Translations under genes and position numbers: made by a program | Assembly (NCBI GenBank): GCA_026992735.1 | Contig: JALWYO010000033.1 | Span: forward strand, 2,091-66,090 | Origin: Deltaproteobacteria bacterium | GTDB taxonomy: Bacteria; Desulfobacterota; Dissulfuribacteria; Dissulfuribacterales; QOAL01 | Direction: 5' to 3' | Length of the DNA stretch: 64,000 nt | Notes under the pieces: generated by a model | The model's database searches: none | What the model was told of the DNA's origin: nothing | The model's input: the letters and a program-made list of their open reading frames with translations, nothing else | Shown: in pieces, positions 6,600-36,769 of the stretch | Layout of the letters: each line of letters opens with the position of its first letter | Position numbering within the stretch: position 1 is the first letter of the stretch

Positions 6600-6804
6600 T
6601 TACCTTGTTGAATACAGGGTTGAAAATACCGTATTTGACAGTAAGTTGCAGATTCTGATTTTGTCCCAAGGATGCAGGACTATGCAGCGTAGGCAAGGAT
6701 GCTGTGATGCCGTGTGCGCTGATACCTGAAATTAATCCGGGACCGCAGGCCCACCGTGGCCTGTATGCAGGTTTATCGTGAATAAATTATTGAGGATTGC
6801 GGGC

Positions 6805-8058
6805 ATGCAGGAAAACAATATAGACCTTGAAAAGATCAGGGCGGGTGTCAAGAAAAAGATAGAGCAGGCCGTTCCTGAAGCCAATATCAACTATTGTCTG
6901 ACATGCGGGCTATGCGCAAGCGGCTGTCCTGCTACAGGCCTGGATGATATGGATCCCAGGAAATTTCTCAGGATGTTGGTGCTTGGGCAGGACGAGGAGA
7001 TCCTGAATACCGACTGGATCTATGCCTGTACCATGTGCCAGAGATGCCGTTATGCCTGTCCCATGGGCATAGATGTAGGTAGAATAGTATATGAAATCAG
7101 GGGGATGCGGCCTCGAGAAAAGCGTCCAAAGAACCTGCAGCGCTCCTGCGACTTGCAGAGGCAGAATAACAGTACAGGTATTCCTAATGAGGATTTTGTC
7201 TGGGTAGTGGGAGACGTGCTGGAAGAGGTCAGGGAGAACGAGCCCGAGTGGAAGGACCTCCAGGCTCCTATAGATAAGAAGGGTGCAAAATATTACCTTA
7301 ACCAGAATGCCAAGGAACCGACAGTGGAGCCGGAGGAGATGGTCCCTCTCTGGAAGATACTACATGCTGCAGATATTGACTGGACCTATTCCTCCGAATG
7401 GTGGGACGGTGCCAACTATTGCCTGTTCACCGGCGATCCTGGAGACTGGGAATACACTGTGCGCAAACAGGCAGAGGTGGTGGATTCCCTTGGGTGCCGA
7501 TATTACATAAATACGGAGTGAGGCCACATGTTCTATGCGACCCTGGAAGGGTTGCGCCGCTTCAACATTCAGCACAAGTTTGAGTTTGTCAGTATTATCA
7601 GCCTCTATGCCCAGTGGATCAGGGAAGGCAGGCTCAAGGTGGATTCATCATGGAACAGGGAAGGCCTTAAGTTCACTGTTCAGGATCCCTGCAAGCTCGT
7701 GAGACAGGGTCTTGGCGATGTTGTGGCTGAAGACCTGCGTTTTGTGGTCAAAAAGGTAGCTGGTGAGGAAAATTTCGTTGACGTATGGCCCAGGCTGTCG
7801 AATAACTATTGCTGTGGCGGCGGTGGCGGCGCCCTGCAGGCCGGTTTCGTGGAAAACAGGCGGAAGTACGGCAAGTTGAAGTTTGATCAGCTGGCGGCAA
7901 CTGGAGCGGATGTGGTAATCACACCATGCCACAATTGTCATAGCCAGGTCCTGGATATATGTGATTTCTACGGAGGCAGGTGGAAGACCACTCACCTGTG
8001 GAACTGGCTTGCAAATGCGCTGGTCATGGATGATTCGGCGACAGGTAGGGAAGGATAG
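6805..8058 (+). CDS. HdrD/GlpC-like Fe-S oxidoreductase (two [4Fe-4S] motifs plus CCG domains), probably a selenoprotein read through UGA 7519-7521
   Basis: Track ORFs 6778..7521 and 7528..8058 are in the same frame and are separated only by TGA plus 6 nt. The N-terminal part has CLTCGLCASGCP and CTMCQRCRYACP. The C-terminal part has a complete CCG domain (C-x39-CCG-x36-CxxC). The start is set at ATG 6805 (GAGGA 8 nt upstream) rather than GTG 6778. Alternative reading: two separate genes, since GAGG lies 4 nt before ATG 7528. Confidence 0.6.
7537..7555 (+). other. candidate bacterial SECIS hairpin
   Basis: GCGACCC-UGGAA-GGGUUGC forms a 7-bp stem (one G-U pair) with a 5-nt G-containing loop. 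It starts 15 nt after the in-frame UGA. Confidence 0.45.
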
Positions 8059-8061: not shown

Positions 8062-11000
8062 ATGAGTACCCCAAAAGGTTCTGTGCTTGTTGTAGGAGGT
8101 GGAATTGCTGGTGTCCAGGCAGCTCTGGACTTGGCGGACAGCGGGTTCTATGTTCACCTGGTAGAGAAAAGCGCGGCCATTGGAGGAAGCATGTCACAGT
8201 TGGATAAGACGTTTCCCACCAATGACTGTTCTGCCTGTATACTTTCGCCAAAGCTGGTTGAGTGCGGAAGGCATCTTAATATAAATCTTCTTACCCTTTC
8301 CGAAGTTTTGTCTGTAGATGGTGAAGAGGGCGATTTTCAAGTAAGAGTGCGGCAGAATCCCAGGTATGTTGATCCTGAAAAGTGTATTGCATGCGGTAGC
8401 TGCGCTGAAAAATGTCCCAAGAAGGTGCCCAACGAATTTGACATGGGCCTTGGCAAGAGAAAGGCCATATATCTCAGATATCCCCAGGCAGTTCCCTTGA
8501 AATATGCCATTGATCCCGATCACTGCATATATCTTAAAAAGCCGGGCAGGTGCGGCTTCTGTGAAAAGGTCTGCCCTGCGGACGCCATAAATTTCAAGGA
8601 TCAACCCAAAGAACATCTGCTCAATGTGGGTTCTGTCATACTTGCGCTTGGTTTCAAGCCCTTTGATCCATCCGGGCTGGATTTTACAGGCTATGGAAAC
8701 TTGAAGAACGTGGTTACCAGTATGGAGTTTGAGAGGCTTCTCAGCCCTTCAGGCCCATGCCAGGGCCACATGGAAAGGCCTTCGGATCACCAGGAGCCGA
8801 AGAAGATCGCCTGGCTCCAGTGTGTCGGGTCCAGGGATATCAACAGGGCCTGTCATGGCTATTGTTCGTCTGTATGCTGCATGTACGCCATAAAACAGGC
8901 GGTGATCGCAAGAGAGCATTCTTCCAGCGGTGCTGTTGATGCAACGGTCTTCTATATGGATATGCGGACTCATGGCAAGGGCTTTGAGGCCTATTATGAC
9001 AGGGCCAGGGAAGAGGGAATTAAATTTCACAGGGCCAGGGTCCATACGGTCTCACCTGCTGAAAATGACAACCTGAAGGTTCGTTATGCAGGAGAGAATG
9101 GGGACATAAGAGAGGATGAGTTCGATTTGGTAGTCCTTTCCGTAGGCCTTGCGACAGATCCGCAGGTCATCAAGCTTGCCAACGACCTGGGCATAGAGCT
9201 GGATTCAGACAGCTTTGCCAGGACAACATGCCTCAGGCCCGTAGAGACCAGCAGGAACGGCGTGTTCGTATGCGGGGCCTTGGCAGAGCCCAAGGATATC
9301 CCCCAGTCTGTCATGGAGGCCAGTGCTGCAGCCCTTGAAGCAGAGCGGATACTCTATCCTTCCAGGTGGACTGAAACAAAGGAAAAACATTTCCCCAAGG
9401 AAAGAGACGTACATGCAGAGCCGCCGCGTATAGGTGTCTTTGTATGTTCCTGCGGGATAAACATAGCCGGAGTGGTAGATGTCCAGGCAGTGACGGATTA
9501 TGCCTGGAAATTGCCAGGCGTGGTATTTGCCCAGAACAACCTGTTTACCTGTTCGCAGGATACCATCAATCAAATGGCAGAGACCATCAAGAGAGAACGG
9601 CTGAACAGGGTGGTCGTGGCTTCATGCACACCCAGGACCCATGAGCCACTGTTTCAGGAAACATTGCGCGAGGCCGGTATCAACAAGTACCTGTTTGAGA
9701 TGGCCAACATCAGGGATCAGGATTCATGGGTGCATCAGCGGCAGCCTGAGGCAGCCACTGAGAAGGCCAAGGACCTGGTGAGGATGGCTGTGGCAAAGGT
9801 AAGGGGAGATGATCCCCTACCGTACAATACCGTGCCTGTTATAAAATCCGCCATGGTCATTGGTTCTGGCGTGGCAGGCTTGACGGCAGCGCTTTCCCTG
9901 GCAGACCAGGGCTTTCCTGTGACTCTTGTGGAAAGGAAGGACAGGCTTGGCGGGCATGCGCACAAGTTTTTCAGGACATGGCAGGGGCAGGAGATGCAGC
10001 CCTATCTGAGTGAGCTGGTGTCCATGGTTGAGGCCAGTGATCTGATAGATGTGCATCTGGGCACCACGGTCCAGGATGTCTCAGGTTCAGTTGGCCAGTT
10101 TACCAGTATCTTGACGGATGGTACCGAGGTGAAACATGGTGTGGCCATCGTTGCCGTTGGCGCCGAATCGTTCAAGCCCAGAGAAGGCAGGTGGAATTAC
10201 CTCTATGGCAAGAATCCCAATGTTCATACGCTCCTGGAACTGGACCAGAGATTTATAAAGGATGATCCGGGCTTAAAGGGCCTTAACCAGGCGGTCTTTA
10301 TCCATTGTGTCGGCTCAAGGGTGCCTGAGCGTCCTTACTGCAGCAGGGTATGCTGCACCCATGCAATAGACCAGGCCCTGCACCTGAAAGAAATGAATCC
10401 GGACATGGATATCTTCATGCTCTACAGGGATATCCGCACCTATGGCAAGAGAGAGCATCTATATCAGGAGGCAAGGGCCAAGGGCATAATTTTCATCCGC
10501 TATGACCTGGAAAACCTTCCCAGAGTCTCGGAAGAGAACGGCAGCATGGTAGTCAAGGTCAGGGACCCGATAATCGATGCCAGCGTGACGCTTCATCCTG
10601 ACCTGCTGATATTGGCCTCTGCGGTGCGGCCCAGGGATGATGTCGGAGGCCTCTCCAAGCTGTTCAAGTGCGCCATGACCGGAGACGGTTTCCTGCTGGA
10701 GGCCCACATGAAGCTGCGCCCTGTGGATTTCGCCACGGACGGCGTTTACCTGGCAGGCCTGTGTCATTATCCAAAGCCGGTGGAGGAGACTATAGCCCAG
10801 GCAAAGGCCGCTGCTTCCAGGGCGGGCCTGGTCCTCTCCAGGGATGCGGTTCCGGCAGAAAGCATAACTGCGGTTGTGAACCTTCAAAAGTGTACCGGTT
10901 GTGCAGTATGTGCCAGGGTCTGTGCCTATCATGCGGTAAATATGGACGAGAACAGCGGCAAGGCACAGGTTGACACCGGGCTATGCAAGGGCTGTGGAGC

Positions 11001-11097
11001 ATGTGTGGCAGGTTGCCGTTCCGATGCAATAACATTAAAGAACCTTGGAAATGAACAGATAATGGCTGCAGTGGAAGCGGCCATGGAAGATTTTTAG
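8062..11097 (+). CDS. hdrA: HdrA-family FAD/Fe-S protein, tandem double-HdrA fusion
   Basis: 1011-aa ORF. It has two FAD Rossmann motifs (VVGGGIAGVQAA; VIGSGVAGLTAA), two CSxVCC motifs (GYCSSVCCMYAIKQA; PYCSRVCCTHAIDQA) and several ferredoxin CxxCxxCxxxCP motifs. It starts 3 nt after the preceding gene. Confidence 0.9.
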   Translation: MSTPKGSVLVVGGGIAGVQAALDLADSGFYVHLVEKSAAIGGSMSQLDKTFPTNDCSACILSPKLVECGRHLNINLLTLSEVLSVDGEEGDFQVRVRQNPRYVDPEKCIACGSCAEKCPKKVPNEFDMGLGKRKAIYLRYPQAVPLKYAIDPDHCIYLKKPGRCGFCEKVCPADAINFKDQPKEHLLNVGSVILALGFKPFDPSGLDFTGYGNLKNVVTSMEFERLLSPSGPCQGHMERPSDHQEPKKIAWLQCVGSRDINRACHGYCSSVCCMYAIKQAVIAREHSSSGAVDATVFYMDMRTHGKGFEAYYDRAREEGIKFHRARVHTVSPAENDNLKVRYAGENGDIREDEFDLVVLSVGLATDPQVIKLANDLGIELDSDSFARTTCLRPVETSRNGVFVCGALAEPKDIPQSVMEASAAALEAERILYPSRWTETKEKHFPKERDVHAEPPRIGVFVCSCGINIAGVVDVQAVTDYAWKLPGVVFAQNNLFTCSQDTINQMAETIKRERLNRVVVASCTPRTHEPLFQETLREAGINKYLFEMANIRDQDSWVHQRQPEAATEKAKDLVRMAVAKVRGDDPLPYNTVPVIKSAMVIGSGVAGLTAALSLADQGFPVTLVERKDRLGGHAHKFFRTWQGQEMQPYLSELVSMVEASDLIDVHLGTTVQDVSGSVGQFTSILTDGTEVKHGVAIVAVGAESFKPREGRWNYLYGKNPNVHTLLELDQRFIKDDPGLKGLNQAVFIHCVGSRVPERPYCSRVCCTHAIDQALHLKEMNPDMDIFMLYRDIRTYGKREHLYQEARAKGIIFIRYDLENLPRVSEENGSMVVKVRDPIIDASVTLHPDLLILASAVRPRDDVGGLSKLFKCAMTGDGFLLEAHMKLRPVDFATDGVYLAGLCHYPKPVEETIAQAKAAASRAGLVLSRDAVPAESITAVVNLQKCTGCAVCARVCAYHAVNMDENSGKAQVDTGLCKGCGACVAGCRSDAITLKNLGNEQIMAAVEAAMEDF

Positions 11098-11112: not shown

Positions 11113-11553
11113 ATGAATGATATATCAAAAAGCAAGGGGGCGTGGGAGCCCAAGATCATCGCCTTTCTCTGCAACTGGTGCAGCTATGCCGGTGCTGACC
11201 TGGCCGGGGTGAGCAGATATCAGTATCCCCCGTCTATCAGGATAGTCCGTGTTCCCTGTTCAGGCCGGGTAAGTCCTAACCTGATACTGGATGCGCTCCG
11301 TTCAGGTGCTGACGGCGTGCTGGTTTCAGGCTGTCATCCCGGGGACTGTCACTATATCAGCGGCAACTACTATGCCAGGAGGCGTTTTGCCCTGCTCAAG
11401 AGATTTCTGGAATTTGTAGGGGTGGAGCCTGACAGGGTGAACTTTACCTGGATTTCTGCATCAGAAGGTGAGCAGTTTGCGCAGGTTGCTACAGAGGTGA
11501 CAGAGCGTGTGAGAAAACTCGGCCCGGCAACACATCTGTTAAAGGAATTTTGA
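11113..11553 (+). CDS. mvhD: MvhD/FlpD-like [2Fe-2S] protein (methyl-viologen-reducing hydrogenase delta-subunit family)
   Basis: 146-aa ORF. The motifs KIIAFLCNWCSYAGADLAG ... RVPCSGRV ... VSGCHPGDCHY are characteristic of MvhD. Confidence 0.9.
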   Translation: MNDISKSKGAWEPKIIAFLCNWCSYAGADLAGVSRYQYPPSIRIVRVPCSGRVSPNLILDALRSGADGVLVSGCHPGDCHYISGNYYARRRFALLKRFLEFVGVEPDRVNFTWISASEGEQFAQVATEVTERVRKLGPATHLLKEF

Positions 11554-11555
11554 TC

Positions 11556-12599
11556 ATGTCCACTGTAAATGAAAAGATAACCTCTGAAATCAGGGAAAAG
11601 GTCCGCGAGCTGCTGGCATCAGGTCATGTGGCAGCCTTTTTGGGCTATACCTCCGGTTCAGTCCCTATGGTCATGCAGCCTCTGATCATCAGGACCCCGG
11701 AGGATGCTGACAGGCTTGAGTGGAACAGTTTTTGTGTTCTGAACCTTGCCAACTATCTGCCTGCACTACTCAAGAGTTTTGAGCCACCCAGGCGCCCGGG
11801 CGATCCTCCTCCAGAGGGTCCTCTTCCAAAGGTTGGGGTCCTGGCAACAGGCTGCTGGTCAAGAAACATGGTAATTCAGGTCCAGGAAAACCAGGTGGAC
11901 AGGGACCGTGTTGTGGTCGTGGGTATTTCCAGCAGGGGCATGGTTGACAGGAAAAAGGTGCTTGCAGCAGTAGGTCACAGGGATGTAACTGCTGTTTACG
12001 AGTATGATCATAGCCTTAAGGTTTCAGGGCCTGGTTATGAGCGGGAGATAAACCGCTGGGATGTTGTAAGAGATAACTGCCGGACCTGTGTCCATCCTGA
12101 TCCTGTTATATTTGATCACATGATAGGTGATCTCAAGGGTGAGAGGGATGTCGCTGACCGTTTCAGGCAGGTGGAAGATATCGAGGTCCTTGCTCCAGAG
12201 GATAGATGGAGCTGGTTCTCCACTGAAATTGCTTCCTGCATAAGGTGTTACGCATGCAGGAATGCATGTCCTCTCTGCTATTGCCCCACATGTTTTGTGG
12301 ATGATTCCAGGCCGCAATGGGTTGGCAAGAGTATAGACAAGGCGGACACAGCCATTTTCCATATACTGAGGGCTTACCACTGTGCAGGCCGCTGTACTGA
12401 TTGCGGCTCCTGTGAAAGCGCATGTCCCATGGGGATAAAGATGAGAATCCTGACCAGGAAACTCCAGAAGGATGTCCTTGAACTCTATGGCGCAGAGGCA
12501 GGTATGGATATGCAGAGTCCTCCACCTCTTAGTACTTACAAGATGGACGATCCACAGGATTTTATCCTGACAGAATCTATCAAGGGTGAAGAAAAGTGA
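11556..12599 (+). CDS. 4Fe-4S dicluster protein (Hdr-associated electron-transfer subunit)
   Basis: ORF track 11550..12599 begins at TTG; I prefer ATG 11556. Cluster motifs are CIRCYACRNACPLCYCPTCF and CTDCGSCESACPMG. The stop overlaps the next start (GTGA). Confidence 0.75.
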   Translation: MSTVNEKITSEIREKVRELLASGHVAAFLGYTSGSVPMVMQPLIIRTPEDADRLEWNSFCVLNLANYLPALLKSFEPPRRPGDPPPEGPLPKVGVLATGCWSRNMVIQVQENQVDRDRVVVVGISSRGMVDRKKVLAAVGHRDVTAVYEYDHSLKVSGPGYEREINRWDVVRDNCRTCVHPDPVIFDHMIGDLKGERDVADRFRQVEDIEVLAPEDRWSWFSTEIASCIRCYACRNACPLCYCPTCFVDDSRPQWVGKSIDKADTAIFHILRAYHCAGRCTDCGSCESACPMGIKMRILTRKLQKDVLELYGAEAGMDMQSPPPLSTYKMDDPQDFILTESIKGEEK

Positions 12600-13624
12600 A
12601 GGTTTTGATCCTCGACAAGGCAGGTTTTCAGGACTGGCTTAGGGCGCTTGCCGGTGAGTTTGATATAATTGGTCCGGCTGAAAATACAAAGGGCCTGCTG
12701 GATTGGAATAAGCTGGAGCCAGGTGAATTACCGGATTTCAGGCCCGGCCTGCCCAAAAGTTCCATAAAGACGTTTTTCTTTCCGCAGCCGGAGACACTTC
12801 TGGAATTTTCTGCGAGGCCAGGAGATGATCAGGCCTTCAGGCCGCATGAACCATCTGAAGGCAGAAGAGCAAGGCTTTTGGCAGGTGTCAGGCCCTGTGA
12901 TGCAAGGAGCGTGGCCCTGAACTCTATGCCTTATGCCAGTGATCCTTACTTTCTTAAAAACAGGGAGAACGTGGCCATGGTAGGCCTTGCATGCACTCAG
13001 GGCTGTTCCACCTGTTTTTGTACGTGGACAGGGGGATCTCCTGTGGGTTCAGATGGCATGGATGTAATGGCGTATCCATTGGGAGATGCCTTTGCTCTTG
13101 AGCCAGTTACCGGCAGGGGCAAAGACATGCTTCTTAAAGCCTCGTCTGCAAGGGAGGCTGCCCAGGAAGATCTGGCTGCCCTGGATGCATTAAAGGCCTC
13201 AGCTCCGTCTTCCCTGCCCGATGCCATGGACCCTGCATCGGTTCTCAGGGAAAAAGAATTGATGTCATTGTACAATGCATCTTTCTGGCAAGGGCTTTCC
13301 GAATCCTGCCTGAACTGTGGCACATGCACATTCCTCTGTCCCACCTGCTACTGCTTTGATATCCAGGACGAGACCCTGAAGGGAAAGGGCCGCAGGATCC
13401 GCTACTGGGATTCCTGCATGTTTCCTCTTTTTACCCTCCATGCATCAGGGCACAATCCCAGGGGTGAGAAGGTCAAGAGGGTCAGGAACCGGTTCATGCA
13501 CAAACTGAAATATTTTCCCGATCGTTTCGGTCCGCTCTCATGCGTTGGATGCGGGCGCTGTGTAAGGGACTGCCCGGTAAACATAGACATAAGACAGGTC
13601 ATGAAAGATCTTCTTGCAATCTGA
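12596..13624 (+). CDS. AsrA / sulfhydrogenase-beta-like 4Fe-4S protein
   Basis: 342-aa ORF with a GTG start. Motifs CLNCGTCTFLCPTCYCFD ... YWDSCMF ... CVGCGRCVRDCPVNIDI match the anaerobic sulfite reductase subunit A / HydB-type family. Confidence 0.8.
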   Translation: MKVLILDKAGFQDWLRALAGEFDIIGPAENTKGLLDWNKLEPGELPDFRPGLPKSSIKTFFFPQPETLLEFSARPGDDQAFRPHEPSEGRRARLLAGVRPCDARSVALNSMPYASDPYFLKNRENVAMVGLACTQGCSTCFCTWTGGSPVGSDGMDVMAYPLGDAFALEPVTGRGKDMLLKASSAREAAQEDLAALDALKASAPSSLPDAMDPASVLREKELMSLYNASFWQGLSESCLNCGTCTFLCPTCYCFDIQDETLKGKGRRIRYWDSCMFPLFTLHASGHNPRGEKVKRVRNRFMHKLKYFPDRFGPLSCVGCGRCVRDCPVNIDIRQVMKDLLAI

Positions 13625-13648: not shown

Positions 13649-14482
13649 ATGAATCCCTATCTGCCTTATCCTGCAAGGATAGATGACATAATAGTAGAGA
13701 CCGAGGACGGCAACCTGAAGACATTCAGGCTGGTCCTGGAAGACAGTAATGACCGGGAGGCATGGACGCATGTGCCTGGCCAGTTTGCCATGCTGAGTAT
13801 TGCCGGCAAGGGTGAAATCCCCATCGGCATTGCATCCTCTCCTACTGAAAAGGGCCATATCCTGTTTACCGTTAACAGGGCAGGCGTGGTGACAACGGCC
13901 CTACACAAGATGAATGTTGGTGATCCTATTGGCGTGAGAGGCCCTCTTGGCAACGGATTTCCCGTGAACTCGGAACTGAAAGGCAAGAATATAGTTATAA
14001 TTGCAGGCGGTTTCGCATTCACAACACTCAGGGCCACGCTGATATACATGCTGGAGCACAGAGATGATTATGGCAGGATAACCGTTATTTACGGTGCCAG
14101 GACTCCTGGAATGCTCCTGTATAAAGATGAGCTCACTGCATGGCAGCAGAGAGATGATCTCGATGTCCATATCACCATAGACAGGGAAGCCCCTGGATGG
14201 ACAGGACTTGTAGGTTTTGTCCCAACAATTGCCGGGCAGGTAAAACCATCCCCTGAAAATGCAGCAGCCTTGATATGCGGCCCTCCTATAATGATAAAGT
14301 TTACAATGCCGCCGCTGGAAGAAGTTGGATGGACAGATGATCAGGTCTATCTTTCCCTTGAGAACCGGATGAAATGCGGCTTGGGCGTATGTGGCCACTG
14401 TAACGTGGGGCCTGTCTATGTCTGCAAGGACGGCCCGGTTTTTACCAGGGCACAGGTGCAGAAACTGCCTGTGGAATTCTGA
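13649..14482 (+). CDS. AsrB / PyrK-like FAD-NAD(P)H oxidoreductase with a C-terminal [2Fe-2S] site
   Basis: 277-aa ORF with a ferredoxin-reductase-type fold (FAD-binding and NAD-binding halves, IIAGGFAFTTL). The C-terminal motif CGLGVCGHCNVGPVYVCKDGPVF resembles the PyrK/AsrB cluster motif. Confidence 0.8.
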   Translation: MNPYLPYPARIDDIIVETEDGNLKTFRLVLEDSNDREAWTHVPGQFAMLSIAGKGEIPIGIASSPTEKGHILFTVNRAGVVTTALHKMNVGDPIGVRGPLGNGFPVNSELKGKNIVIIAGGFAFTTLRATLIYMLEHRDDYGRITVIYGARTPGMLLYKDELTAWQQRDDLDVHITIDREAPGWTGLVGFVPTIAGQVKPSPENAAALICGPPIMIKFTMPPLEEVGWTDDQVYLSLENRMKCGLGVCGHCNVGPVYVCKDGPVFTRAQVQKLPVEF

Positions 14483-17068: not shown

Positions 17069-17144
17069 TGGTGGAGCTGAGCGGGATCGAACCGCTGACC
17101 TCGTGAATGCCATTCACGCGCTCTCCCAACTGAGCTACAGCCCC
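17069..17144 (-). tRNA. tRNA-Ala (anticodon GGC)
   Basis: The reverse complement folds as a 76-nt cloverleaf: GGGGCTGTAGCTCAGTTGGGAGAGCGCGTGAATGGCATTCACGAGGTCAGCGGTTCGATCCCGCTCAGCTCCACCA. It has the G3:U70 Ala identity pair, an anticodon loop AUGGCAU (GGC), a GGTTCGATCC T-arm and an encoded CCA. Confidence 0.95.
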
Positions 17145-17507: not shown

Positions 17508-18953
17508 ATGCATCCCATATTCAAGGATCTTCAGGAATTCATAAAGGCTTTGGAAGCCGCAGGTGAACTTGTCAGGATAGCCGAACCAGTGAGCCCTGAG
17601 TTGGAGATAGCGGAGATAACCTGCCGAGTTTCCCATAGTCATGGCCCGGCATTGCTGTTTGAAAACGTATCCGGCGGATCAATGCCTGTGCTGACCAATG
17701 CATTTGGATCCCTGAAACGCATGTGCATGGCCTTCGGCATTTCTGACCTGGACAGTCTCGCCTCTGATGTCCTGGATTTCATTGATCTGGAAGATCCTGC
17801 TGGATACTGCAGCAGGCATGCCATTGATATGTATGCAGGCAAGATAAATCCTGTAAGACCAATACCGGTATCATCTGCGCCTTGCCAGGAGAGGGTCTTT
17901 GTTGGAGATGAAGTGGATCTCGCCATGCTGCCGGTTCTCAAGTGCTGGCCTAGTGATGGCGGCCCGTCTCTCACCATGCCCGTGGTGTTGACAAGGGATC
18001 CTGAAACAGGTGTGAGAAATGCCGGGGTTTACAGGATGCAGGTATATGGCAGAAACAGGACAGGCATGCACTGGTATGCTTCCAGGGGAGGCGCCCGTCA
18101 TTACCGTTCTGCTGAACGGCTGAATGAGCCTCTGGAGGCAGCAGTATGTATCGGCCCCGATCCTGTTACGACTTATGCGGCTACCGCCCCTCTGCCAGAC
18201 GGCATTGATGAGCTGCTTTTTGCCGGTTTCATCAGGCATGATTCAGTAGAACTGGTAAAGTGCAGGACAGTGGACATGGAAGTGCCTGCGCAGTCCCAGA
18301 TAGTCCTGGAAGGCTTTTTAGCGCCTGGTGAACGCCTGCCGGAAGGTCCGTTTGGAAACCACACAGGCTGTTATTCCCCCGTGGAGGAATATCCGGTATT
18401 TCATGTTACCTGCATGACCATGAAAAAATCACCTGTTTATCAGGCCACTGTTGCAGGGCCTCCTCCACAGGAGGACTGCTTTATGGCAAAGGCCACAGAA
18501 CGCCTGTTTCTTCCTTTGATAAAGAGGACTGTGCCTGGAGTAGTGGATGTAAACCTGCCAATAGAAGGTATATTCGGCAACCTTGCATTTGTCTCCATAG
18601 ACAAGCGTTTCCCAGGTCACGCCCGGAAGGTAATGAATGCCCTGTGGGGCCATTTCCTGGGAACGTGGAGGATAATCTGCGTGTTTGACAGGGATGTGGA
18701 TGTGCAGGATATGACTCAGGTATTGTGGCGTCTTGGAAATAATATAGATCCCAAGCGGGATGTATGCTTTACTGACGGCCCTGTGGACATCCTGGCATGG
18801 TCGGCCCCCTTTCCTGGCTACGGCAGCAGGATGGGTATAGACTGCACTGTGACATGGGATGAGGAAGGAGGCAGGCCGTGTCCCGGGACCATGGAGATGG
18901 ATCCTGCTGTCAGCCAGAGAGTGGACCTGCTCTGGTCCAGGCTTGGACTTTGA
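17508..18953 (+). CDS. UbiD-family (prenyl-FMN-dependent) decarboxylase, menaquinone/ubiquinone-type
   Basis: 481-aa ORF with UbiD-family similarity along its whole length (GVYRMQVYG, PFGNHTGCYS). A UbiX-type gene follows immediately. Confidence 0.9.
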   Translation: MHPIFKDLQEFIKALEAAGELVRIAEPVSPELEIAEITCRVSHSHGPALLFENVSGGSMPVLTNAFGSLKRMCMAFGISDLDSLASDVLDFIDLEDPAGYCSRHAIDMYAGKINPVRPIPVSSAPCQERVFVGDEVDLAMLPVLKCWPSDGGPSLTMPVVLTRDPETGVRNAGVYRMQVYGRNRTGMHWYASRGGARHYRSAERLNEPLEAAVCIGPDPVTTYAATAPLPDGIDELLFAGFIRHDSVELVKCRTVDMEVPAQSQIVLEGFLAPGERLPEGPFGNHTGCYSPVEEYPVFHVTCMTMKKSPVYQATVAGPPPQEDCFMAKATERLFLPLIKRTVPGVVDVNLPIEGIFGNLAFVSIDKRFPGHARKVMNALWGHFLGTWRIICVFDRDVDVQDMTQVLWRLGNNIDPKRDVCFTDGPVDILAWSAPFPGYGSRMGIDCTVTWDEEGGRPCPGTMEMDPAVSQRVDLLWSRLGL

Positions 18954-18960
18954 TTTGACA

Positions 18961-19554
18961 ATGGGCAGTATGAACAGCATGCAGATCGACTTGCCGGTTC
19001 TTCTGGCCGTGACAGGAGCCAGCGGTTCTATCTATGCGCTGAAATTTTTGGAGATAATGGCCGGGATAGGGCAGGAAGTACACCTGGTGGTATCAGAAAC
19101 CGGCAGGCAGGTATGCAGGCTGGAACTCGGGCCAAAAGGCATGGAAGCCATGGCAGGGTTTGCAGGCCGGGTTTACAATTGTTCCAGGTTTGACGAGATG
19201 CCTGCCAGCGGCTCCAGCAGGTGGAGGGCCATGGTTATCCTACCATGCACCATGGGCACCATGGGGGCAATTGTCAACGGCATATCAATGAATCTCATAC
19301 ACCGTGCCGCTGACTGTTTTCTCAAGGAAAACAGGCAAGTGGTTGCGGCAGTCAGGGAGACCCCGCTAAACAGGATACATCTGAAGAATATGCTGGCATT
19401 CTCAGAGGCCGGGGGGGTGGTTTATCCCGCCATGCCTTCATTCTATTCTCATCCGGCAGGTCTTGATGAGATGGCGGCATTTTTCGCAGGCCGTCTGGCT
19501 GAATTTCTGGGATTTAGAATAGAGGGGTTGCCTGTATGGCAAGGCAATCCTTAA
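18961..19554 (+). CDS. ubiX: UbiX-family flavin prenyltransferase
   Basis: The track ORF starts at 18859 inside ubiD. I trimmed it to ATG 18961, just after the ubiD stop. The sequence LLAVTGASGSIYALKFLE ... PCTMGTMGAIVNGIS is typical of UbiX/Pad1. Confidence 0.9.
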   Translation: MGSMNSMQIDLPVLLAVTGASGSIYALKFLEIMAGIGQEVHLVVSETGRQVCRLELGPKGMEAMAGFAGRVYNCSRFDEMPASGSSRWRAMVILPCTMGTMGAIVNGISMNLIHRAADCFLKENRQVVAAVRETPLNRIHLKNMLAFSEAGGVVYPAMPSFYSHPAGLDEMAAFFAGRLAEFLGFRIEGLPVWQGNP

Positions 19555-19659
19555 TTTTAGAATAGGGAATCGGTTTATGTTTATACGCATCTCTACAAGC
19601 CCGGTCAAACCCGGCTGTCGCAATTTAATATTATGCGGGAATTCCGCAGGGAGGATGCA

Positions 19660-20394
19660 ATGAGTCCAGATATAGAAAAGGCCTTGGCTTACCAGGTAAA
19701 AAAGGAGATAGCACAGCGCTATTTTGGCATTCGCAAGCTCATAGATGAGGACAGCGCCAACGTTAAGGCCATGATAAAGGATCTGAACCAGTTTCTGGAG
19801 AAGAAGATAGCGCCAGCTATTCTCCGCATATATATGTTGCTCATGGACAGTGATCTCATAGACGAGTTTCTTAATATCATTGGCTGGGAAGGCCGGCCCT
19901 TCATTGATGCCAATGTTGCGGCATCGGCAGATGCCCGCAAGAAATTGCTGCAGGGAATACATACTCACGGCTGGCTCAAGAGCTCCAGGTTTGCAAATCT
20001 GCTCCTGAAAAGTTATGAAGATCTATATGATGTGTACCTGGAATTTGATGATCTCAGGGAAGATATTCTGGATGAGCTTGCAATAGTGGAAGAAGAGATA
20101 ACCCAGTTCAAGAGAAATTATTCCCTGGATGAGATAATGTCTTTCCTTCGTGGTCTGAATTTTGATGACGAGGCCACTGTCAAGGCCCTGGGTAAAAACA
20201 TAGACTCTTCCAAGATGGGAGAGCTGGAAAAGAAGCTCGGTTTTCCGGATATCCAGAGTATCAGGGCGGAAATGCCGGATGTTCCAAAGCTTCCGAAGCC
20301 TGAGGCAATAGAGGATCAGCTTCGGGACCTGGCCAGCCGGGTATATAACCGCCACAAAGACGAGATACAGGAGCTGCTGGAAGTGGTTAGGTAA
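19660..20394 (+). CDS. hypothetical protein (acidic, helical), embedded in the UbiD/UbiX/UbiA cluster
   Basis: Track ORF 19633..20394. I prefer ATG 19660, which has GGGAGGA 5 nt upstream. I recognise no family motif. Confidence 0.6.
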   Translation: MSPDIEKALAYQVKKEIAQRYFGIRKLIDEDSANVKAMIKDLNQFLEKKIAPAILRIYMLLMDSDLIDEFLNIIGWEGRPFIDANVAASADARKKLLQGIHTHGWLKSSRFANLLLKSYEDLYDVYLEFDDLREDILDELAIVEEEITQFKRNYSLDEIMSFLRGLNFDDEATVKALGKNIDSSKMGELEKKLGFPDIQSIRAEMPDVPKLPKPEAIEDQLRDLASRVYNRHKDEIQELLEVVR

Positions 20395-20481
20395 CATAGA
20401 CATAGAAGTGTTGTGCCGTTATGTCATCTGGTATGCTGTATGACAGGATGTGGATATTAGAAACAGGCGGAATATAAGATA

Positions 20482-21360
20482 ATGACGACAGGCAGTAAGA
20501 CGATTTCCGGCAGAGTCCGGATATTTCTGGACATGATAAAGTTCCAGCACACCATTTTTGCGCTTCCCTTTGCCTATGTGGGTGCCTTTCTCGCAGCTAA
20601 GGGGGTTCCTCCCATTGGAACATGTGTCTGGATACTGCTTGCCATGGCCGGTGCCAGGACAGTAGCCATGGCAGTCAACAGGATAGTGGACAGGGAGTAT
20701 GATGCTGAAAACCCCCGCACCATGGACCGCCCTCTGGTTACAGGGGCCATAATGGAGCCGGATGCATGGATCATGGTGACTATGGCTGCCCTTGTATATT
20801 TCATTGCCTGTTACAACCTTACTACCTTGGCATTCAGGCTTTCCCCCCTTATATTGGCTATTCTTGTCTTCTATTCTTATACAAAACGTTTCACCTTCCT
20901 GTGTCACCTGTTCCTGGGGCTTGGCATAGGCATTACTCCCACTGCTGGCTGGATAGCGGTCAGTAATTCCATAGGCATTACTCCTCTGCTTCTAAGCCTG
21001 GGCGTAATGTTCTGGATTGCCGGGTTCGATATACTGTATGCATGCCAGGATGTAGAATTTGATGCGGACCGCGGCCTTCATTCTATCCCTGTAAAGCTGG
21101 GGGTAAAGCGGGCATTCGTCGTCTCCGGGGCATTCCATGTGATAGCATTCGGCGCCTTTATGGCAGCCGGCATTACGGCAGGCTTGAACTGGATATATTA
21201 CCTTGGCATGGTGGCTGTCTTTGTGCTTCTCTGCCTCCAGCGTATGGTAATTACCCCCTCTGACCTGAGCAGGATGAACCTGGCTTTTTTCAGAATGAAT
21301 GCGGCAATCAGTATAATCCTGCTGGTTTCCACCTCGTTTTCCATCTTTATGGCCAGGTAA
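20482..21360 (+). CDS. UbiA-family aromatic polyprenyltransferase (4-hydroxybenzoate / menaquinone-precursor type)
   Basis: 292-aa polytopic membrane protein with UbiA Asp-rich motifs (NRIVDREYDAENPRT; YACQDVEFDADRGLHS). Confidence 0.9.
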   Translation: MTTGSKTISGRVRIFLDMIKFQHTIFALPFAYVGAFLAAKGVPPIGTCVWILLAMAGARTVAMAVNRIVDREYDAENPRTMDRPLVTGAIMEPDAWIMVTMAALVYFIACYNLTTLAFRLSPLILAILVFYSYTKRFTFLCHLFLGLGIGITPTAGWIAVSNSIGITPLLLSLGVMFWIAGFDILYACQDVEFDADRGLHSIPVKLGVKRAFVVSGAFHVIAFGAFMAAGITAGLNWIYYLGMVAVFVLLCLQRMVITPSDLSRMNLAFFRMNAAISIILLVSTSFSIFMAR

Positions 21361-22163
21361 TGGCAGTCAGGCATGACATGAATGCCCGGATTTTGCTCCA
21401 GGAGGAGGTTGGGCCGGACACGTTTCTCATGAGATTTGAGGCAACCGTCATCTCGGAATATGCCCGTCCAGGCCAGTTCATAATGATAAGGCTGTGCGGT
21501 TATGAGGGCCATGATCCTCTGCTGAGAAGGCCTTTTTCCATCCATGCAGCAGACCCTGATAAGGGAACCGTTGATATCCTGTACCGTGTCGTGGGTAGGG
21601 GGACAAGGCAGATGTCCGGCCTTGCGCCAGGCATGGCCCTGAAGGTACTCGGCCCTCTTGGCCGAGGATTCAGCCTGCATGAAGAAAGGACCCCTGTACT
21701 GGTAGGTGGAGGTCTTGGCGTTGCGCCCCTCCTCTTCCTTGCCAGGCATCTTAAGGGTCAGGGAGGTTCTGTCATACTTGGTGCAGTGACATCCCGCCAG
21801 CTTCTGAGGCTGGATGCATTTGAGAATACCGGCCTTGATCTGCTCGTTGCAACCGAAGATGGCAGCGCAGGAGTCAGGGGGCTGGTAACAGGTGTGCTGG
21901 ATAATCTATTGAAGGATATCGGCAGTCATCACGCCCGGCCTGCAGCAGTGTATTCATGCGGGCCCATGCCCATGCTCAAGGCGGTGGCCGGGGTATGTAT
22001 GGAATATGCCATCGAATGCCAGGTATCTATAGAAGCGGTAATGGCATGTGGCCTGGGGCTGTGTCTCGGATGTGCAGTAAAGGCAAGGCATGATGGCTAT
22101 GTGCATGTGTGCAGGGAAGGCCCTGTGTTTTATTCAGACCAGATAGACTGGGAGCAGCTGTAA
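21360..22163 (+). CDS. pyrK: dihydroorotate dehydrogenase (type 1B) electron-transfer subunit
   Basis: 267-aa ORF with a ferredoxin-reductase fold and a C-terminal [2Fe-2S] motif CGLGLCLGCAV...VCREGPVF. Its ATG overlaps the ubiA stop (TAATG). Confidence 0.9.
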   Translation: MAVRHDMNARILLQEEVGPDTFLMRFEATVISEYARPGQFIMIRLCGYEGHDPLLRRPFSIHAADPDKGTVDILYRVVGRGTRQMSGLAPGMALKVLGPLGRGFSLHEERTPVLVGGGLGVAPLLFLARHLKGQGGSVILGAVTSRQLLRLDAFENTGLDLLVATEDGSAGVRGLVTGVLDNLLKDIGSHHARPAAVYSCGPMPMLKAVAGVCMEYAIECQVSIEAVMACGLGLCLGCAVKARHDGYVHVCREGPVFYSDQIDWEQL

Positions 22164-22170
22164 ACGCATC

Positions 22171-23112
22171 ATGAAATCAGAAAAGGAGATAAAGCAGGCC
22201 TGTTCTTCACCTGACATCAGTGTCAAGATAGGCGATTTAGAGCTTAAAAATCCGGTTATGCTGGCTTCAGGAACCTGCGGTTACGGCTTGGAATTCGCAG
22301 ATTTTGTGGACCCGTCTAGTTTGGGGGCCGTGGTGGTCAAAGGGCTTTCGCTGGAGCCAAGGGAGGGGAATCCTCCCCCGCGCCTGGCAGAGACTCCATG
22401 TGGCCTCCTGAATGCAATAGGGCTGGAGAATATAGGTCTTGATGCCTTTCTCAAACAGAAGTTGCCTTGGCTCATGGAGAGAAATGTGACCGTTGTGGTG
22501 AATATACTGGGCAGCACCCTTGAAGAATATCAGCGTATTGCAGCAAGGCTGTCAGAGTCCTCCGGGGTGCATGCCATAGAGGTAAACATTTCCTGTCCAA
22601 ATGTAAAAAAAGGAGGCGTGGCCTTTGGGACAGATCTCGTGCAGGCAGCAAATGTTACCAGGAAGGTAGTTGAGGTTTCATCAATTCCCGTAATAGTTAA
22701 ACTGTCTCCCAACGTGACCGACATCTGCGCCATTGCCAAGGCGGTGGAAGATGCCGGAGCCACTGCGGTATCCCTTATAAATACGCTCCTGGGCATGGTC
22801 ATTGACATCCATAACAGAAGGCCTGCGCTCGGAAATGTATTTGGAGGGCTTTCCGGCCCTGCCATTAAGCCGATAGCGCTTAGGATGGTATGGCAGGTGG
22901 CACGCTGTGTTGGTATCCCGGTCATAGGAATCGGCGGGATTGCAACTGCCGAAGATGCCCTGGAATTTCTTATGGCCGGGGCTTTGGCGGTGCAGATAGG
23001 CACTGCCACTCTTGTGGATCCTCTTGCATCTAAGAATGTGTTAAATGGAATAGTTGACTTTCTTACGAAAAATAACTACCGTAATCTTGTAGAGTTGAGG
23101 ATAAGCTCTTAA
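22171..23112 (+). CDS. pyrD: dihydroorotate dehydrogenase (type 1B) catalytic subunit
   Basis: 313-aa ORF with LKNPVMLASGTCGYG, NISCPNVKKGG and GIGGIATAEDALEFLMAGA. Confidence 0.9.
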   Translation: MKSEKEIKQACSSPDISVKIGDLELKNPVMLASGTCGYGLEFADFVDPSSLGAVVVKGLSLEPREGNPPPRLAETPCGLLNAIGLENIGLDAFLKQKLPWLMERNVTVVVNILGSTLEEYQRIAARLSESSGVHAIEVNISCPNVKKGGVAFGTDLVQAANVTRKVVEVSSIPVIVKLSPNVTDICAIAKAVEDAGATAVSLINTLLGMVIDIHNRRPALGNVFGGLSGPAIKPIALRMVWQVARCVGIPVIGIGGIATAEDALEFLMAGALAVQIGTATLVDPLASKNVLNGIVDFLTKNNYRNLVELRISS

Positions 23113-27756: not shown

Positions 27757-28122
27757 ATGATGAGCGGTTTTGAAACCATCGTCATGTATCTTGGAATGTC
27801 ATTGCTGGTTGTGCTGGCAATGCTGGGAGCATCGGCGTTACTTGGTCCTTTTCGGCCGCGGCCACAAAAGGCGACCACTTTTGAATGCGGTGTTCCGCTT
27901 CTGGAACCCGGTCATAAACGCTACTCAGTCAGATACTATCTGGTGGCTGTTCTTTTTCTTGTTTTCGATTTGGAAACAGTTCTTCTTTATCCCCTTGCGG
28001 TCAAATACAAGGCGTTGGCCCAACTTGGCTGGGGAGTATTTTTTGAGGTCTTTATCTTTGTTTTTGTTTTGTTGGTCGGTCTGGTTTATGCCATAAAGAA
28101 AGGCGCTATAGATTGGCGATAG
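27757..28122 (+). CDS. nuoA: NADH-quinone oxidoreductase subunit A
   Basis: 121-aa ORF with three TM helices, a FECG motif and GAGGAGG upstream. Confidence 0.9.
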   Translation: MMSGFETIVMYLGMSLLVVLAMLGASALLGPFRPRPQKATTFECGVPLLEPGHKRYSVRYYLVAVLFLVFDLETVLLYPLAVKYKALAQLGWGVFFEVFIFVFVLLVGLVYAIKKGAIDWR

Positions 28123-28135
28123 TGGGGACTGGAGT

Positions 28136-28651
28136 ATGAATTTTCAGGCAATTCAAGGTGAGGGCTGGCTGCTTACAAAGGCCGAACAGTTGATAAATTG
28201 GGGCAGAAGCAGGTCTCCTTGGCCATTTCCTTATGGTACGGCATGCTGTGGTATTGAGCTTATGTGTGCCCTTGCTTCCGGCTACGATATGGCCCGGTTC
28301 GGTGCAGAGCGCGTGGCATTTACGCCGCGCCAGTGTGATGTGCTGATCGAGGCTGGCACAATAACTAAAAAGATGGTCCCTGTGCTGAAGAGGATCTATG
28401 CGCAGATGGCTGAGCCCAAATGGGTGATAGCTGTAGGTGCCTGTGCCTGTACCGGCGGAGTTTTCAGGACTTATTCAACACAGCAGGGTATAGGTTCTAT
28501 AATCCCTGTGGACATCTACATTCCTGGCTGTCCGCCAAGGCCTGAGGGCATTTTGTATGCACTGCTCAAGCTGATAGACAAGATTGAAGCAGATCATCCT
28601 CTTTATAAAAACCGTCAAAAGGTAATAGAAGCATTGGAGGCTAACAAATGA
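28136..28651 (+). CDS. nuoB: NADH-quinone oxidoreductase subunit B
   Basis: 171-aa ORF. The N2-cluster ligand motifs CCGIE, GACACTGG and IPGCPPRPE are present. Confidence 0.95.
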   Translation: MNFQAIQGEGWLLTKAEQLINWGRSRSPWPFPYGTACCGIELMCALASGYDMARFGAERVAFTPRQCDVLIEAGTITKKMVPVLKRIYAQMAEPKWVIAVGACACTGGVFRTYSTQQGIGSIIPVDIYIPGCPPRPEGILYALLKLIDKIEADHPLYKNRQKVIEALEANK

Positions 28652-29199
28652 GCCTCGAACAACGTATCAAGGATTGTCTCGGTGCGGATGTAGTGGAGAT
28701 CACGGAATTCAGAGGTGATGTCTGTGTGGAGATCCCTAAGTCGCGGGTTATTGAGGCCATGACCCTTCTTAAAGAGAAGGCAGGCTTTGATTTCCTCAGT
28801 GATGTGATTGGTGTGGATAACATGGATCTCTATGCCAAGGCCAAAAAGGCGAAGAAAAAGAAGAAGGATGAAGAGGAAGAGGAGCCCAAGAAGGAAGGCC
28901 CCCCGCCTCCCAGATTTGATGTTATCTATCTTCTTCTGTCTTTGTCTCGTGATGAGAGAGTGCAGGTTAAGGTCCGTGTGCCAGAGGACGATATGGATGT
29001 TCCAAGTGTCACGGGTCTGTGGAAGGCTGCAACCTGGCCAGAAAGAGAGGCCTTTGACATGTATGGCTTCAATTTCACCGGGCATCCGAATCTCCGGCGT
29101 TTGTTGATGTGGGATGAATTTGAAGATCATCCGCTGCGCAAGGATTACCCTCTCGAGGGTAAGGGTGAAGAGAGGCATCTTAACTACGATACTGTTTGA
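28648..29199 (+). CDS. nuoC: NADH-quinone oxidoreductase subunit C, with a Lys/Glu/Pro-rich insertion
   Basis: 183-aa ORF with WPEREAFDMYGFNFTGHPNLRRLL. The start overlaps the nuoB stop (ATGA). It carries the insertion AKAKKAKKKKKDEEEEEPKKEGPPPP. Confidence 0.9.
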   Translation: MSLEQRIKDCLGADVVEITEFRGDVCVEIPKSRVIEAMTLLKEKAGFDFLSDVIGVDNMDLYAKAKKAKKKKKDEEEEEPKKEGPPPPRFDVIYLLLSLSRDERVQVKVRVPEDDMDVPSVTGLWKAATWPEREAFDMYGFNFTGHPNLRRLLMWDEFEDHPLRKDYPLEGKGEERHLNYDTV

Positions 29200-29287
29200 A
29201 AGACTCGATCAGGCCTTGGGAAAAGACTGCTTGTGCAGACTTTTTTGCCCGATGCAAGTGGTTCTGCGAGTTTAGGGGAGGATAAGA

Positions 29288-30433
29288 GTGGCTACTGAAA
29301 CCGTATGCATTACGACCGGCCCTGCCGACGTTGGGGATTATGTTTCTCTCAATATCGGGCCTATACATCCAGCTATGCACGGCACTCTGAGGGTTATTAC
29401 CAGGACCGATGGTGAGACTATTCTAAGTGCCGAGCCGGAGATAGGTTACCTTCATCGTGGTGTAGAAAAGTTAGGCGAGAATTTCACTTACAAGCAATTT
29501 CTGCCACTGACCGACAGACTCAATTATTGTTCTGCCATTTGTAATAATGTGGCCTATGAGCTTGCCGTGGAAAAACTTCTTGGCATAGAGGTTCCACCAA
29601 AGGCACAGCTTGTCCGCACAATTATGATGGAGCTGGCCCGTATCGCTGACCATGAGGTATTGGTGGGCATACTTGGCGTTGATCTTGGGGCACTGACTCC
29701 GTTCTTTTACCTTATCATCCAGCGTGAAGAGATATATGAGATTTTCGAGTGGCATCATGGCGCACGTCTGACCAACTCTATGGGTGCAATAGGCGGTGTA
29801 GAGGCACCTTTGCCTGACAGATTCCATCAGAAGTGGCCCAAAATGAGGGATTCCATCAGGCGGGCAAATGACGAAACAGACAAGCTGCTGACTCATAACC
29901 GTATCTGGATGGACAGGACCATAGGTGTCAATGCTTTTTGCGAAGAGGATGCCCTTAACTGGGGATTTACTGGTCCGATGCTTAGGGCTTGCGGCACCAG
30001 GAGAGATATAAGAAAAGACGAGCCCTACCTGATGTACAACGAGTTTGATTTTGAGGTGCCAACGGGCAAACATGGTGATGTCTTTGATAGGTACATGATT
30101 CGTATGCTCGAGATGGAAGAATCTATCAAGATCATAGATCAGGCCTATGCCATGTACCAGGAAATGCCTGATGATGCGCCTCTCATGAAGAAGGTGCCGA
30201 AGATCATCAAGCCTCCGGCAGGTCAAGCCTACCATGCCATAGAATCTCCAAATGGAGAGCTTGGATTTTTTATCAAGAGCGATGGATCAGATAAACCATA
30301 CAGGATAAAGATTCGTCCACCGTGCTATATGATCTATCAGGCATTCGAGGAATTGGTAAAGGGCGAGATGATTTCAGATCTCATAGCCTGTCTCAGCAGC
30401 ATAAATGTGATTGCTGGTGAGCTTGACAGGTAG
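29288..30433 (+). CDS. nuoD: NADH-quinone oxidoreductase subunit D
   Basis: 381-aa ORF with a GTG start and GGGGAGGA upstream. It contains IGPIHPAMHGTLRV and other conserved 49-kDa subunit blocks. Confidence 0.95.
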   Translation: MATETVCITTGPADVGDYVSLNIGPIHPAMHGTLRVITRTDGETILSAEPEIGYLHRGVEKLGENFTYKQFLPLTDRLNYCSAICNNVAYELAVEKLLGIEVPPKAQLVRTIMMELARIADHEVLVGILGVDLGALTPFFYLIIQREEIYEIFEWHHGARLTNSMGAIGGVEAPLPDRFHQKWPKMRDSIRRANDETDKLLTHNRIWMDRTIGVNAFCEEDALNWGFTGPMLRACGTRRDIRKDEPYLMYNEFDFEVPTGKHGDVFDRYMIRMLEMEESIKIIDQAYAMYQEMPDDAPLMKKVPKIIKPPAGQAYHAIESPNGELGFFIKSDGSDKPYRIKIRPPCYMIYQAFEELVKGEMISDLIACLSSINVIAGELDR

Positions 30434-30447
30434 GAGGGACCATATCT

Positions 30448-31488: not shown

Positions 31489-31503
31489 TCGGAGCGGAAG
31501 AAC

Positions 31504-32751: not shown

Positions 32752-32762
32752 GGGGAATAACA

Positions 32763-36763: not shown

Positions 36764-36769
36764 ATAGGT

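Follow-up and report, generated by a model that had tools for sequence, protein, structure and literature searches.

In the 64,000-nucleotide stretch of deltaproteobacterial DNA analyzed here (hereafter the window), the in-frame UGA codon at positions 7519-7521 almost certainly encodes selenocysteine (Sec), as judged by comparison with homologous sequences, at the position of the catalytic Cys of an HdrD-like iron-sulfur (Fe-S) protein. We consider it very probable that the complete picture is that of one hdrD-like gene in which UGA is decoded as Sec through a selenocysteine insertion sequence (SECIS), with Sec239 as the catalytic residue and with electrons supplied by HdrA, MvhD and Flx-like proteins. 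The core of the initial annotation of this region, namely, Sec at UGA 7519, a conserved Cys column and a downstream hairpin, was supported by all the tests that we ran. The features of the gene are as follows.

6805..8058, plus strand: hdrD-like gene, read as one gene for a 417-residue soluble HdrD-like (HmcF/TmcB/DsrK-type) Fe-S protein with predicted Sec at residue 239
6895..7062, plus strand: HdrC-like part with two ferredoxin-type [4Fe-4S] motifs, residues 31-42 and 75-86 (Pfam Fer4_17 and Fer4_8)
7420..7422, plus strand: codon of Cys206 (NYC), invariant in the homolog alignment and aligned to HdrB Cys42, vestigial N-terminal CCG motif
7513..7527, plus strand: T-E-U-G-H motif, counterpart of T/G-E-C-G-H in DsrK, HmcF and TmcB
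7519..7521, plus strand: in-frame UGA, residue 239, read as Sec; TGA or a Cys codon in orthologs
7536..7556, plus strand: predicted bacterial SECIS hairpin with the core stem 7537-7543 / 7549-7555 and the apical loop U-GG-A-A, including G7545 and G7546
7690..7938, plus strand: complete C-terminal CCG motif, C296-x39-C336C337G-x36-C375xxC378 (Pfam CCG), aligned to HdrB 153-234

Gene model and protein architecture

Re-examination of the sequence confirmed that the open reading frames (ORFs) 6778..7521 and 7528..8058, which the initial annotation had paired, lie in the same frame and that only the TGA at 7519-7521 and the six nucleotides GGCCAC stand between them. The start assigned mechanically to the upstream ORF is GTG 6778; the true start of the hdrD-like gene is likely to be ATG 6805 because the N-termini of homologs match there and GAGGA is located 8 nt upstream of this codon. 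The upstream part contains the ferredoxin-type motifs C31xxCxxCxxxCP and C75xxCxxCxxxCP, and the family profile matches the HdrC chains 7bkb_C and 5odc_C with E values of 1e-17 to 1e-18. These two motifs, as well as the full CCG domain (C-x39-CCG-x36-CxxC) in the downstream part, had already been read from the sequence in the initial annotation, and both parts were recovered independently by the respective Pfam models. Altogether, the protein contains exactly one complete CXnCCGXnCX2C motif, the predicted site of a single noncubane [4Fe-4S] cluster, in addition to the two ferredoxin-type motifs; the N-terminal CCG motif is vestigial.

Several lines of evidence support the view, based on comparison of protein sequences, that 6805..8058 encodes a single-chain protein rather than two gene products. 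The read-through product, with Cys put at the UGA, is matched by the NCBIfam model of HmcF in one stretch that spans residues 9-409, and the TmcB and DsrK models of NCBIfam match it as well. A search of a large protein collection yielded thousands of full-length homologs of approximately 410-430 residues that show 50-74% identity. The alignment of the homologs is continuous across the UGA junction (...N-T-E-C-G-H...), with Cys in this column in 21 of the 21 full-length proteins. Around the UGA codon, the read-through product has the residues ...YYINTE-U-GHMFYATLEGLR, in which E238, G240 and H241 are invariant or nearly so among the homologs, and the distance from C206 to the UGA is 33 residues. 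The AlphaFold2 (AF2) model of a Cys homolog with 74% identity (P0001; predicted local distance difference test score 91.5, predicted template modeling score 0.90) consists of one HdrB-like fold that spans the Sec site.

Codon usage at the Sec column among orthologs

The first protein search suggested that the homologs were mostly Cys forms, which proved to be a database artefact: the near-exclusive recovery of Cys forms results from gene callers splitting the Sec forms into two ORFs, and the picture was reversed by a survey at the DNA level. One genome per species was scanned, and the 80 loci detected were analyzed together with the window and L001, the contig that encodes the closest protein entry (P0102), giving 82 sequences. 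The codon in the Sec column is TGA in 72 of these sequences, TGC in 9 and TGT in one; the frame around each TGA is open for 217-260 codons before it and for 169-196 codons after it. Among the 80 closest genome loci, 70 carry TGA at this position. Thus, single-chain orthologs show Cys in this column at the protein level and TGA, TGC or TGT at the DNA level, whereas orthologs split by TAA or TAG, which the initial annotation had named as evidence to the contrary, are represented by none of the 82 sequences.

The P0102 protein itself illustrates the artefact. It is 94% identical to the window protein, is 238 residues long and ends with ...INTE, and its locus in L001 (1688-2944) contains the same TGA and the same hairpin but is annotated as two genes. 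This truncated cluster alone comprises 54 member sequences, and the same mis-call is widespread. The annotation of the window should be corrected accordingly, with one 417-residue selenoprotein in place of the separate ORFs (247 and 176 residues).

Two further candidates were considered and set aside. The protein P0035 from Desulfotignum phosphitoxidans (EMS81429.1) is named 'oxidoreductase, selenocysteine-containing' but has Cys in the Sec column, so the name is no evidence for this site. The remaining pairs of same-frame ORFs joined by TGA in the window are adjacent genes or off-frame ORFs, and none of them looks like a credible Sec candidate.

The downstream hairpin

The hairpin GCGACCC-UGGAA-GGGUUGC occupies positions 7537-7555 and starts 15 nt past the UGA. 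When folded with ViennaRNA, it extends to 9 bp with a GGA loop, at -12.0 kcal/mol. The published model of the bacterial SECIS (bSECIS) calls for a loop of 3-9 nt, a stem of 4-16 bp and a minimum free energy (MFE) of at most -7.5 kcal/mol, with G in the first two loop positions (N1-G-[G|U]-N-N2) and a spacing of 16-37 nt from the UGA (PMC13188914). With 9 bp and the GGA loop (or 7 bp and UGGAA), the loop sequence U-G-G-A-A, a spacing of 23 nt and the above energy, the window hairpin falls within all these limits, which bears out the SECIS-like geometry that had been attributed to it at the outset. Among the 2308 TGA trinucleotides of the window, 2.5% precede a bSECIS-compliant hairpin and 0.43% precede one that is equally stable.

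Taken as a single sequence, the hairpin is thus only mildly unusual. The decisive evidence is comparative and comes from the codon pattern, covariation, decay in the Cys loci and constraint on third codon positions. In the alignment of the 72 TGA sequences, on which covariation was computed, pairing is preserved in 95.5% of the cells of the eight-pair helix, and compensatory double changes occur in 5 of the 8 pairs (60 cells). None of 500 shuffles reached the observed pairing and covariation, and pairing fell to 16-45% when the 3' partners were shifted by one, two or three columns. The apical G-G shows little or no variation. The covariation cuts across codons: column 26, the second base of codon +9, covaries with column 30, the wobble base of codon +10, as U-A, G-C and A-U, which correspond to Leu-CUG followed by GCA or GAA, Arg-CGG followed by GCC or GUC, and Gln-CAG followed by GCU, respectively. 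The entropy of third codon positions is 0.46 bits within the hairpin vs 1.15 bits outside it. The hairpin persists in all the TGA loci, which form on average 7.65 of the 8 pairs with a mean MFE of -11.5 kcal/mol, whereas the 10 loci with a Cys codon form 3.8 pairs with a mean MFE of -3.8 kcal/mol. In the proposed mechanism, the hairpin at 7537-7555 would act as a bacterial SECIS: while the ribosome pauses at the UGA, the hairpin would bring in SelB together with its Sec-tRNA(Sec), and translation would then proceed past the UGA into the CCG domain.

One of the Cys forms deserves separate mention. Locus L004 has TGC in the Sec column and reads through as ...STECGHMFYA, whereas its sisters L005 and L006 have TGA. 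Despite the TGC codon, the region 6700-6760 of L004 retains 6 of the 8 hairpin pairs. Its sequence suggests that Sec was converted to Cys recently in this locus and that the hairpin is what remains of a SECIS.

Position of the Sec residue and its proposed role in catalysis

The profile of the C-terminal 279 residues of the family was aligned to the HdrB chains of PDB 5odc_B and 8rvu_b. The hhalign comparison yielded one collinear alignment with a probability of 96-97%, on which the local, greedy and global modes agree, and HMMER produced the same register. The correspondence of the key residues is given below.

Sec239: HdrB Cys78, first Cys of C78-N-G-C81 (the CxxC of the vestigial N-terminal CCG motif)
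M242 (Ser in most homologs): HdrB Cys81, second Cys of the CxxC
C206 (NYC): HdrB Cys42, second Cys of the CC doublet
No counterpart in the family: HdrB Cys9, lost

The initial annotation had taken Sec for the second Cys of the first CCG triplet. This assignment did not stand: given that hhalign places Sec239 at HdrB Cys78, the match in spacing on which it was built (C-x31-E-U-G) is coincidental. In the AF2 model, the Cys of the Sec site is located between a strand and the N-terminus of a helix, similarly to Cys376 of the intact CxxC. An internal-repeat comparison of the vestigial N-terminal CCG domain with the C-terminal one, also by hhalign, produced only a 3-residue match (NYC) that is not significant, so the mapping of Sec relies on the alignment with HdrB.

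A clue to the function of this residue comes from DsrK. The G-E-C-G-H motif of DsrK (T/G-E-C-G-H in HmcF and TmcB) contains a strictly conserved Cys, the sole survivor of a missing second CCG motif, that has been proposed to be essential for catalysis (PMC10861901). In the cryo-electron microscopy structure of the A. fulgidus protein, this residue, Cys329, is not a cluster ligand but lies between the substrate Cys of DsrC and the noncubane [4Fe-4S] cluster; it carries a persulfide and is proposed to serve as a sulfur relay, with His331 of the same motif as the likely proton donor (bioRxiv 10.64898/2026.08.25.746951). Neither of these DsrK mechanism papers (PMC10861901; bioRxiv 10.64898/2026.08.25.746951) mentions Sec forms. 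Given that the motif in the window protein is T-E-U-G-H, Sec replaces exactly the motif Cys of DsrK. We propose that the protein is a soluble HdrD-like iron-sulfur disulfide/polysulfide reductase in which Sec239, standing in for the Cys of T/G-E-C-G-H, would be positioned beside the single noncubane [4Fe-4S] cluster, where the selenolate could attack a disulfide or trisulfide of the substrate, yielding an Se-S intermediate that would be reduced by the neighboring cluster.

On balance, we slightly favor the broader proposition that, in the clade of soluble HdrD proteins, Sec is the majority state at the position equivalent to DsrK Cys329, a proposed sulfur relay that does not ligate the cluster, and that this clade presents a natural Cys-to-Sec experiment. 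If so, the residue would be a nucleophilic or redox-active chalcogen that forms Se-S intermediates and not a cluster ligand, and protein databases would systematically under-represent the clade, with gene callers splitting its members at the UGA. The match to DsrK Cys329 offers a modest but testable handle on enzymes with a single noncubane cluster.

Alternative explanations

Several points weigh against a catalytic Sec in a single-chain protein. ARAGORN and Rfam scans of the 64-kb window and NCBIfam scans of 40 ORFs in it detected no selA, selB, selD or tRNA-Sec gene, so we can only infer that the source organism is capable of Sec insertion; in related loci, the neighboring hdrA and mvhD genes hold in-frame TGA codons of their own together with hairpins, which argues that the related lineages decode Sec. 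In the subclade to which the window belongs, the UGA is followed by a Met codon (ATG 7528) with GAGG before it, and from sequence alone, reinitiation at this codon is possible. Folding of the hairpin as a single sequence is unexceptional (z = -0.65 and 0.01); because a 19-nt hairpin cannot be judged by single-sequence fold statistics, comparative data were used instead. The Rfam scan of the window (gathering threshold, 4227 families) found only a tRNA and no model that matches the hairpin, a result that speaks neither for nor against a SECIS. The catalytic role of Sec239 is extrapolated by homology from DsrK Cys329 through the shared motif.

One rival explanation is that there are two real genes, such that UGA 7519 is a true stop and the CCG half is translated from ATG 7528 via the GAGG at 7520-7523, to give a split pair of HdrC-like and HdrB-like proteins. 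The GAGG indeed sits 4 nt before ATG 7528, as the initial annotation had cautioned, an ATG at codon +3 is retained in 7 loci of close relatives, gene callers annotate two ORFs (L001 and P0102), and HdrC and HdrB are separate proteins in methanogens. However, only 17 of the 72 TGA orthologs have a start codon within 4 codons, the other 55 lacking one, and the first ATG appears at codon +89 in 50 of the 72 TGA loci. The GAGG itself is unavoidable, being formed by the codons of the invariant U-G pair (UGA-GGN), and the Met at +3 is a residue of the subclade, found at the same position within the continuous ORF of the Cys-form sister L004. The putative stop is never TAA or TAG and alternates solely with Cys codons. 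Furthermore, the break would cut the HdrB-like fold instead of falling at the HdrC/HdrB boundary, would delete the conserved C/U-G-H, and would leave the covarying hairpin without a role. We therefore regard two genes as improbable. Much the same small chance is assigned to the UGA being decoded as Cys, Trp or Gly, standard amino acids that contain no selenium, by an organism that lacks the Sec machinery or uses a variant code. Near-cognate read-through of UGA occurs in bacteria, and no Sec-machinery genes are visible in the 64-kb window, which would fit this possibility. Against it, TGA terminates 14 of the 31 confidently identified window genes, and hence a reassigned genetic code is excluded; the hairpin combines SECIS geometry with a near-invariant loop G-G and decays where the codon is that of Cys; and the family has already been published as a selenoprotein family (see below). 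A lone in-frame stop in an otherwise intact gene also resembles a point error, but a pseudogene or a sequencing or assembly error can be practically dismissed when 71 independent assemblies share the TGA at this very codon, conservation of the protein sequence extends to both halves, and the frames are open on either side.

Operon organization and proposed electron pathway

The hdrD-like gene heads an hdrD-hdrA-mvhD-flx-like operon, with hdrA beginning 4 nt past its stop codon. The genes downstream of it are the following.

8062..11097, plus strand: hdrA, 1011 residues, two HdrA-like modules, Cys and not Sec at residue 59 (NCBIfam HdrA2 and HdrA)
11113..11553, plus strand: mvhD/flxD-like gene, Cys at residues 23 and 74 (NCBIfam VhuD and HdrA2 C-terminus)
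11550..12599, plus strand: flx/flox-like Fe-S protein gene (NCBIfam match)
12596..13624, plus strand: HydB/AsrA-like Fe-S protein gene (NCBIfam match)
13649..14482, plus strand: HydG/AsrB-like FAD/NAD(P)-binding protein gene (NCBIfam match)

Examination of the flanks of 71 related TGA loci revealed hdrA in 43 and mvhD in 36 of them. The order of the six genes is identical in L002, L003 and L006, and the same gene set is present in rearranged form in L008 and L033. The hdrA genes of 7 related loci contain an in-frame TGA aligned to Cys59 of the window HdrA, and the mvhD genes of related loci contain a TGA aligned either to Cys23 (12 loci) or to Cys74 (6 loci) of the window MvhD. Each of these hdrA and mvhD TGA codons is followed by a CCUGGNAGG-type hairpin (in related loci such as L021, L034, L053, L066 and L073). 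Because the window has Cys at all three positions (HdrA 59, MvhD 23 and MvhD 74), HdrD is the sole selenoprotein of the window operon.

Hdr/Flox clusters in which HdrD takes the place of HdrBC have been described in Syntrophobacter fumaroxidans (Sfum_1969-1977; PMC5947623), and for Hdr/Flox complexes, an electron bifurcation has been proposed in which NADH reduces both ferredoxin and a disulfide carrier, for example DsrC (PMC4215793). The gene context suggests that the window operon encodes a complex of the Hdr/Flox type with HdrD replacing HdrBC, in which HdrA, MvhD and the Flx-like NAD(P)H dehydrogenase would pass electrons to HdrD through its pair of ferredoxin-type clusters; oxidized DsrC is the substrate usually proposed. 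Such a complex probably couples NAD(P)H and ferredoxin to sulfur chemistry of the thiol/disulfide or DsrC type, and the predicted Sec would place selenium at its catalytic residue in a sulfate-reducer-like anaerobe.

Relation to known protein families

The window protein belongs to a kind of system that is already known. The 'Fe-S oxidoreductase (GlpC)' selenoprotein family was described by Zhang, Gladyshev and co-workers in glpC-hdrA operons (PMC1794560), and the same family is listed as 'Fe-S oxidoreductase-like protein' with the motif UGH (PMC13188914), which confirms the statement of the initial annotation that GlpC-like proteins are among the known selenoproteins; a Sec-containing HdrD4 has also been reported in Desulfobacterium autotrophicum (PMC2702500). 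The selenoprotein family has been known since 2006, and the window gene is a further member of it, in a variant operon. The likeness to this family (representative WP_174406253.1), judged by the published motif, the domains and the operon, includes the same domain make-up, a Sec motif E-U-G-H (residues 238-241) that contains UGH, and a position immediately before hdrA and an mvhD/frhD homolog in genomes of the delta-proteobacterial type (Thermodesulfobacteriota). The operons differ further downstream: in Syntrophobacter, the operon runs on into the hydrogenase genes frhG-frhA and Sec is also found in HdrA and FrhD, whereas the window operon runs on into flx-like NAD(P)H dehydrogenase genes, and its HdrA and MvhD use Cys. 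The modest contribution of the present analysis is the connection of the Sec site with DsrK Cys329 and HdrB Cys78, the finding that Sec is in the majority among the closest genomic relatives, and the correction of the annotation.

The name GlpC is merely a historical COG label of the selenoprotein family, and by profile comparison, the window protein is not a true GlpC, HmcF, TmcB or DsrK. The GlpC model matches only the ferredoxin part with 46 bits vs a cut-off of 278, and neither glpA nor glpB is found nearby. With DsrK, HmcF and TmcB, the protein shares two ferredoxin-type clusters, one complete CCG motif, and T/G-E-C-G-H with its non-ligating catalytic Cys and conserved His. Nevertheless, the NCBIfam scores are far under the equivalog cut-offs (HmcF, 189 of 750 bits; TmcB, 169 of 735; DsrK, 132 of 400), so the window protein is a paralog of these proteins that probably works in a similar manner. 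It additionally differs from them in having Sec in place of Cys, in the last CCG ligand (Cys378, as opposed to Asp in many DsrK proteins), and in the absence of a gene for a membrane partner (dsrM, hmcE or tmcC), the neighbors being the soluble hdrA, mvhD and flx-like products.

In comparison with HdrBC of methanogens (5ODC, 8RVU), the N-terminal part of the window protein resembles HdrC, and the C-terminal 260 residues resemble the whole of HdrB, with the hhalign probability of 96-97% given above and Foldseek template modeling (TM) scores of 0.60-0.63 on the target for the AF2 model of P0001. The window protein is, however, fused in one chain and retains only the proximal (C-terminal) CCG motif intact; of the five ligands of the distal cluster, only the positions of Cys42 (C206) and Cys78 (Sec239) remain. 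The Hdr/Flox system (FlxABCD-HdrABC) shares with the window operon an HdrA, an MvhD-like FlxD, two Fe-S proteins and a FAD/NAD(P)-binding protein, but the order in the window is hdrD-hdrA-flxD-C-B-A and HdrA is a double module of 1011 residues.

The top Foldseek match of the P0001 model is EtfD of Mycobacterium smegmatis (PDB 9ojn; E = 3e-11, TM score 0.71 on the query), which is also detected by sequence-profile comparison. In contrast to the window protein, EtfD, the partner of the electron transfer flavoprotein (ETF), is located in the membrane and comprises 1042 residues; it shows 17% identity and, according to its entry, is not a selenoprotein. After EtfD and HdrB, the structural matches are glutamate and aspartate racemases, which align with the HdrB-like half (E = 5e-4, TM score approximately 0.3-0.4). 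Glutamate and aspartate racemases are two-domain enzymes with one catalytic Cys per domain. In the structural model, this resemblance may reflect a shared fold only.

Other genes in the window

Elsewhere in the window, the sole tRNA gene is that of tRNA-Ala(GGC) (17069-17144, minus strand). The region 17508-23112 contains menaquinone biosynthesis genes, namely, an SCO4490-type UbiD-family decarboxylase (17508-18953) and an MqnP-like prenyltransferase (20482-21360), adjoined by pyrK/pyrD-like genes (21360-23112). Part of a nuo-type complex I operon follows, in which NuoD and NuoH were identified at 29288-31488 and which probably extends over 27757-38311. A nitrogen-regulation cluster on the minus strand (41094-48154) consists of glnA (41094-42506), glnD (42585-45164) and two tandem ammonium transporter genes (45598-46815 and 46841-48154). 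Finally, the ORF of leucyl-tRNA synthetase (54847-57552) is listed with a TTG start approximately 70 codons before the model match, and in this form it overlaps the upstream ORF 54539-55033; the true start of this gene is probably located further downstream.

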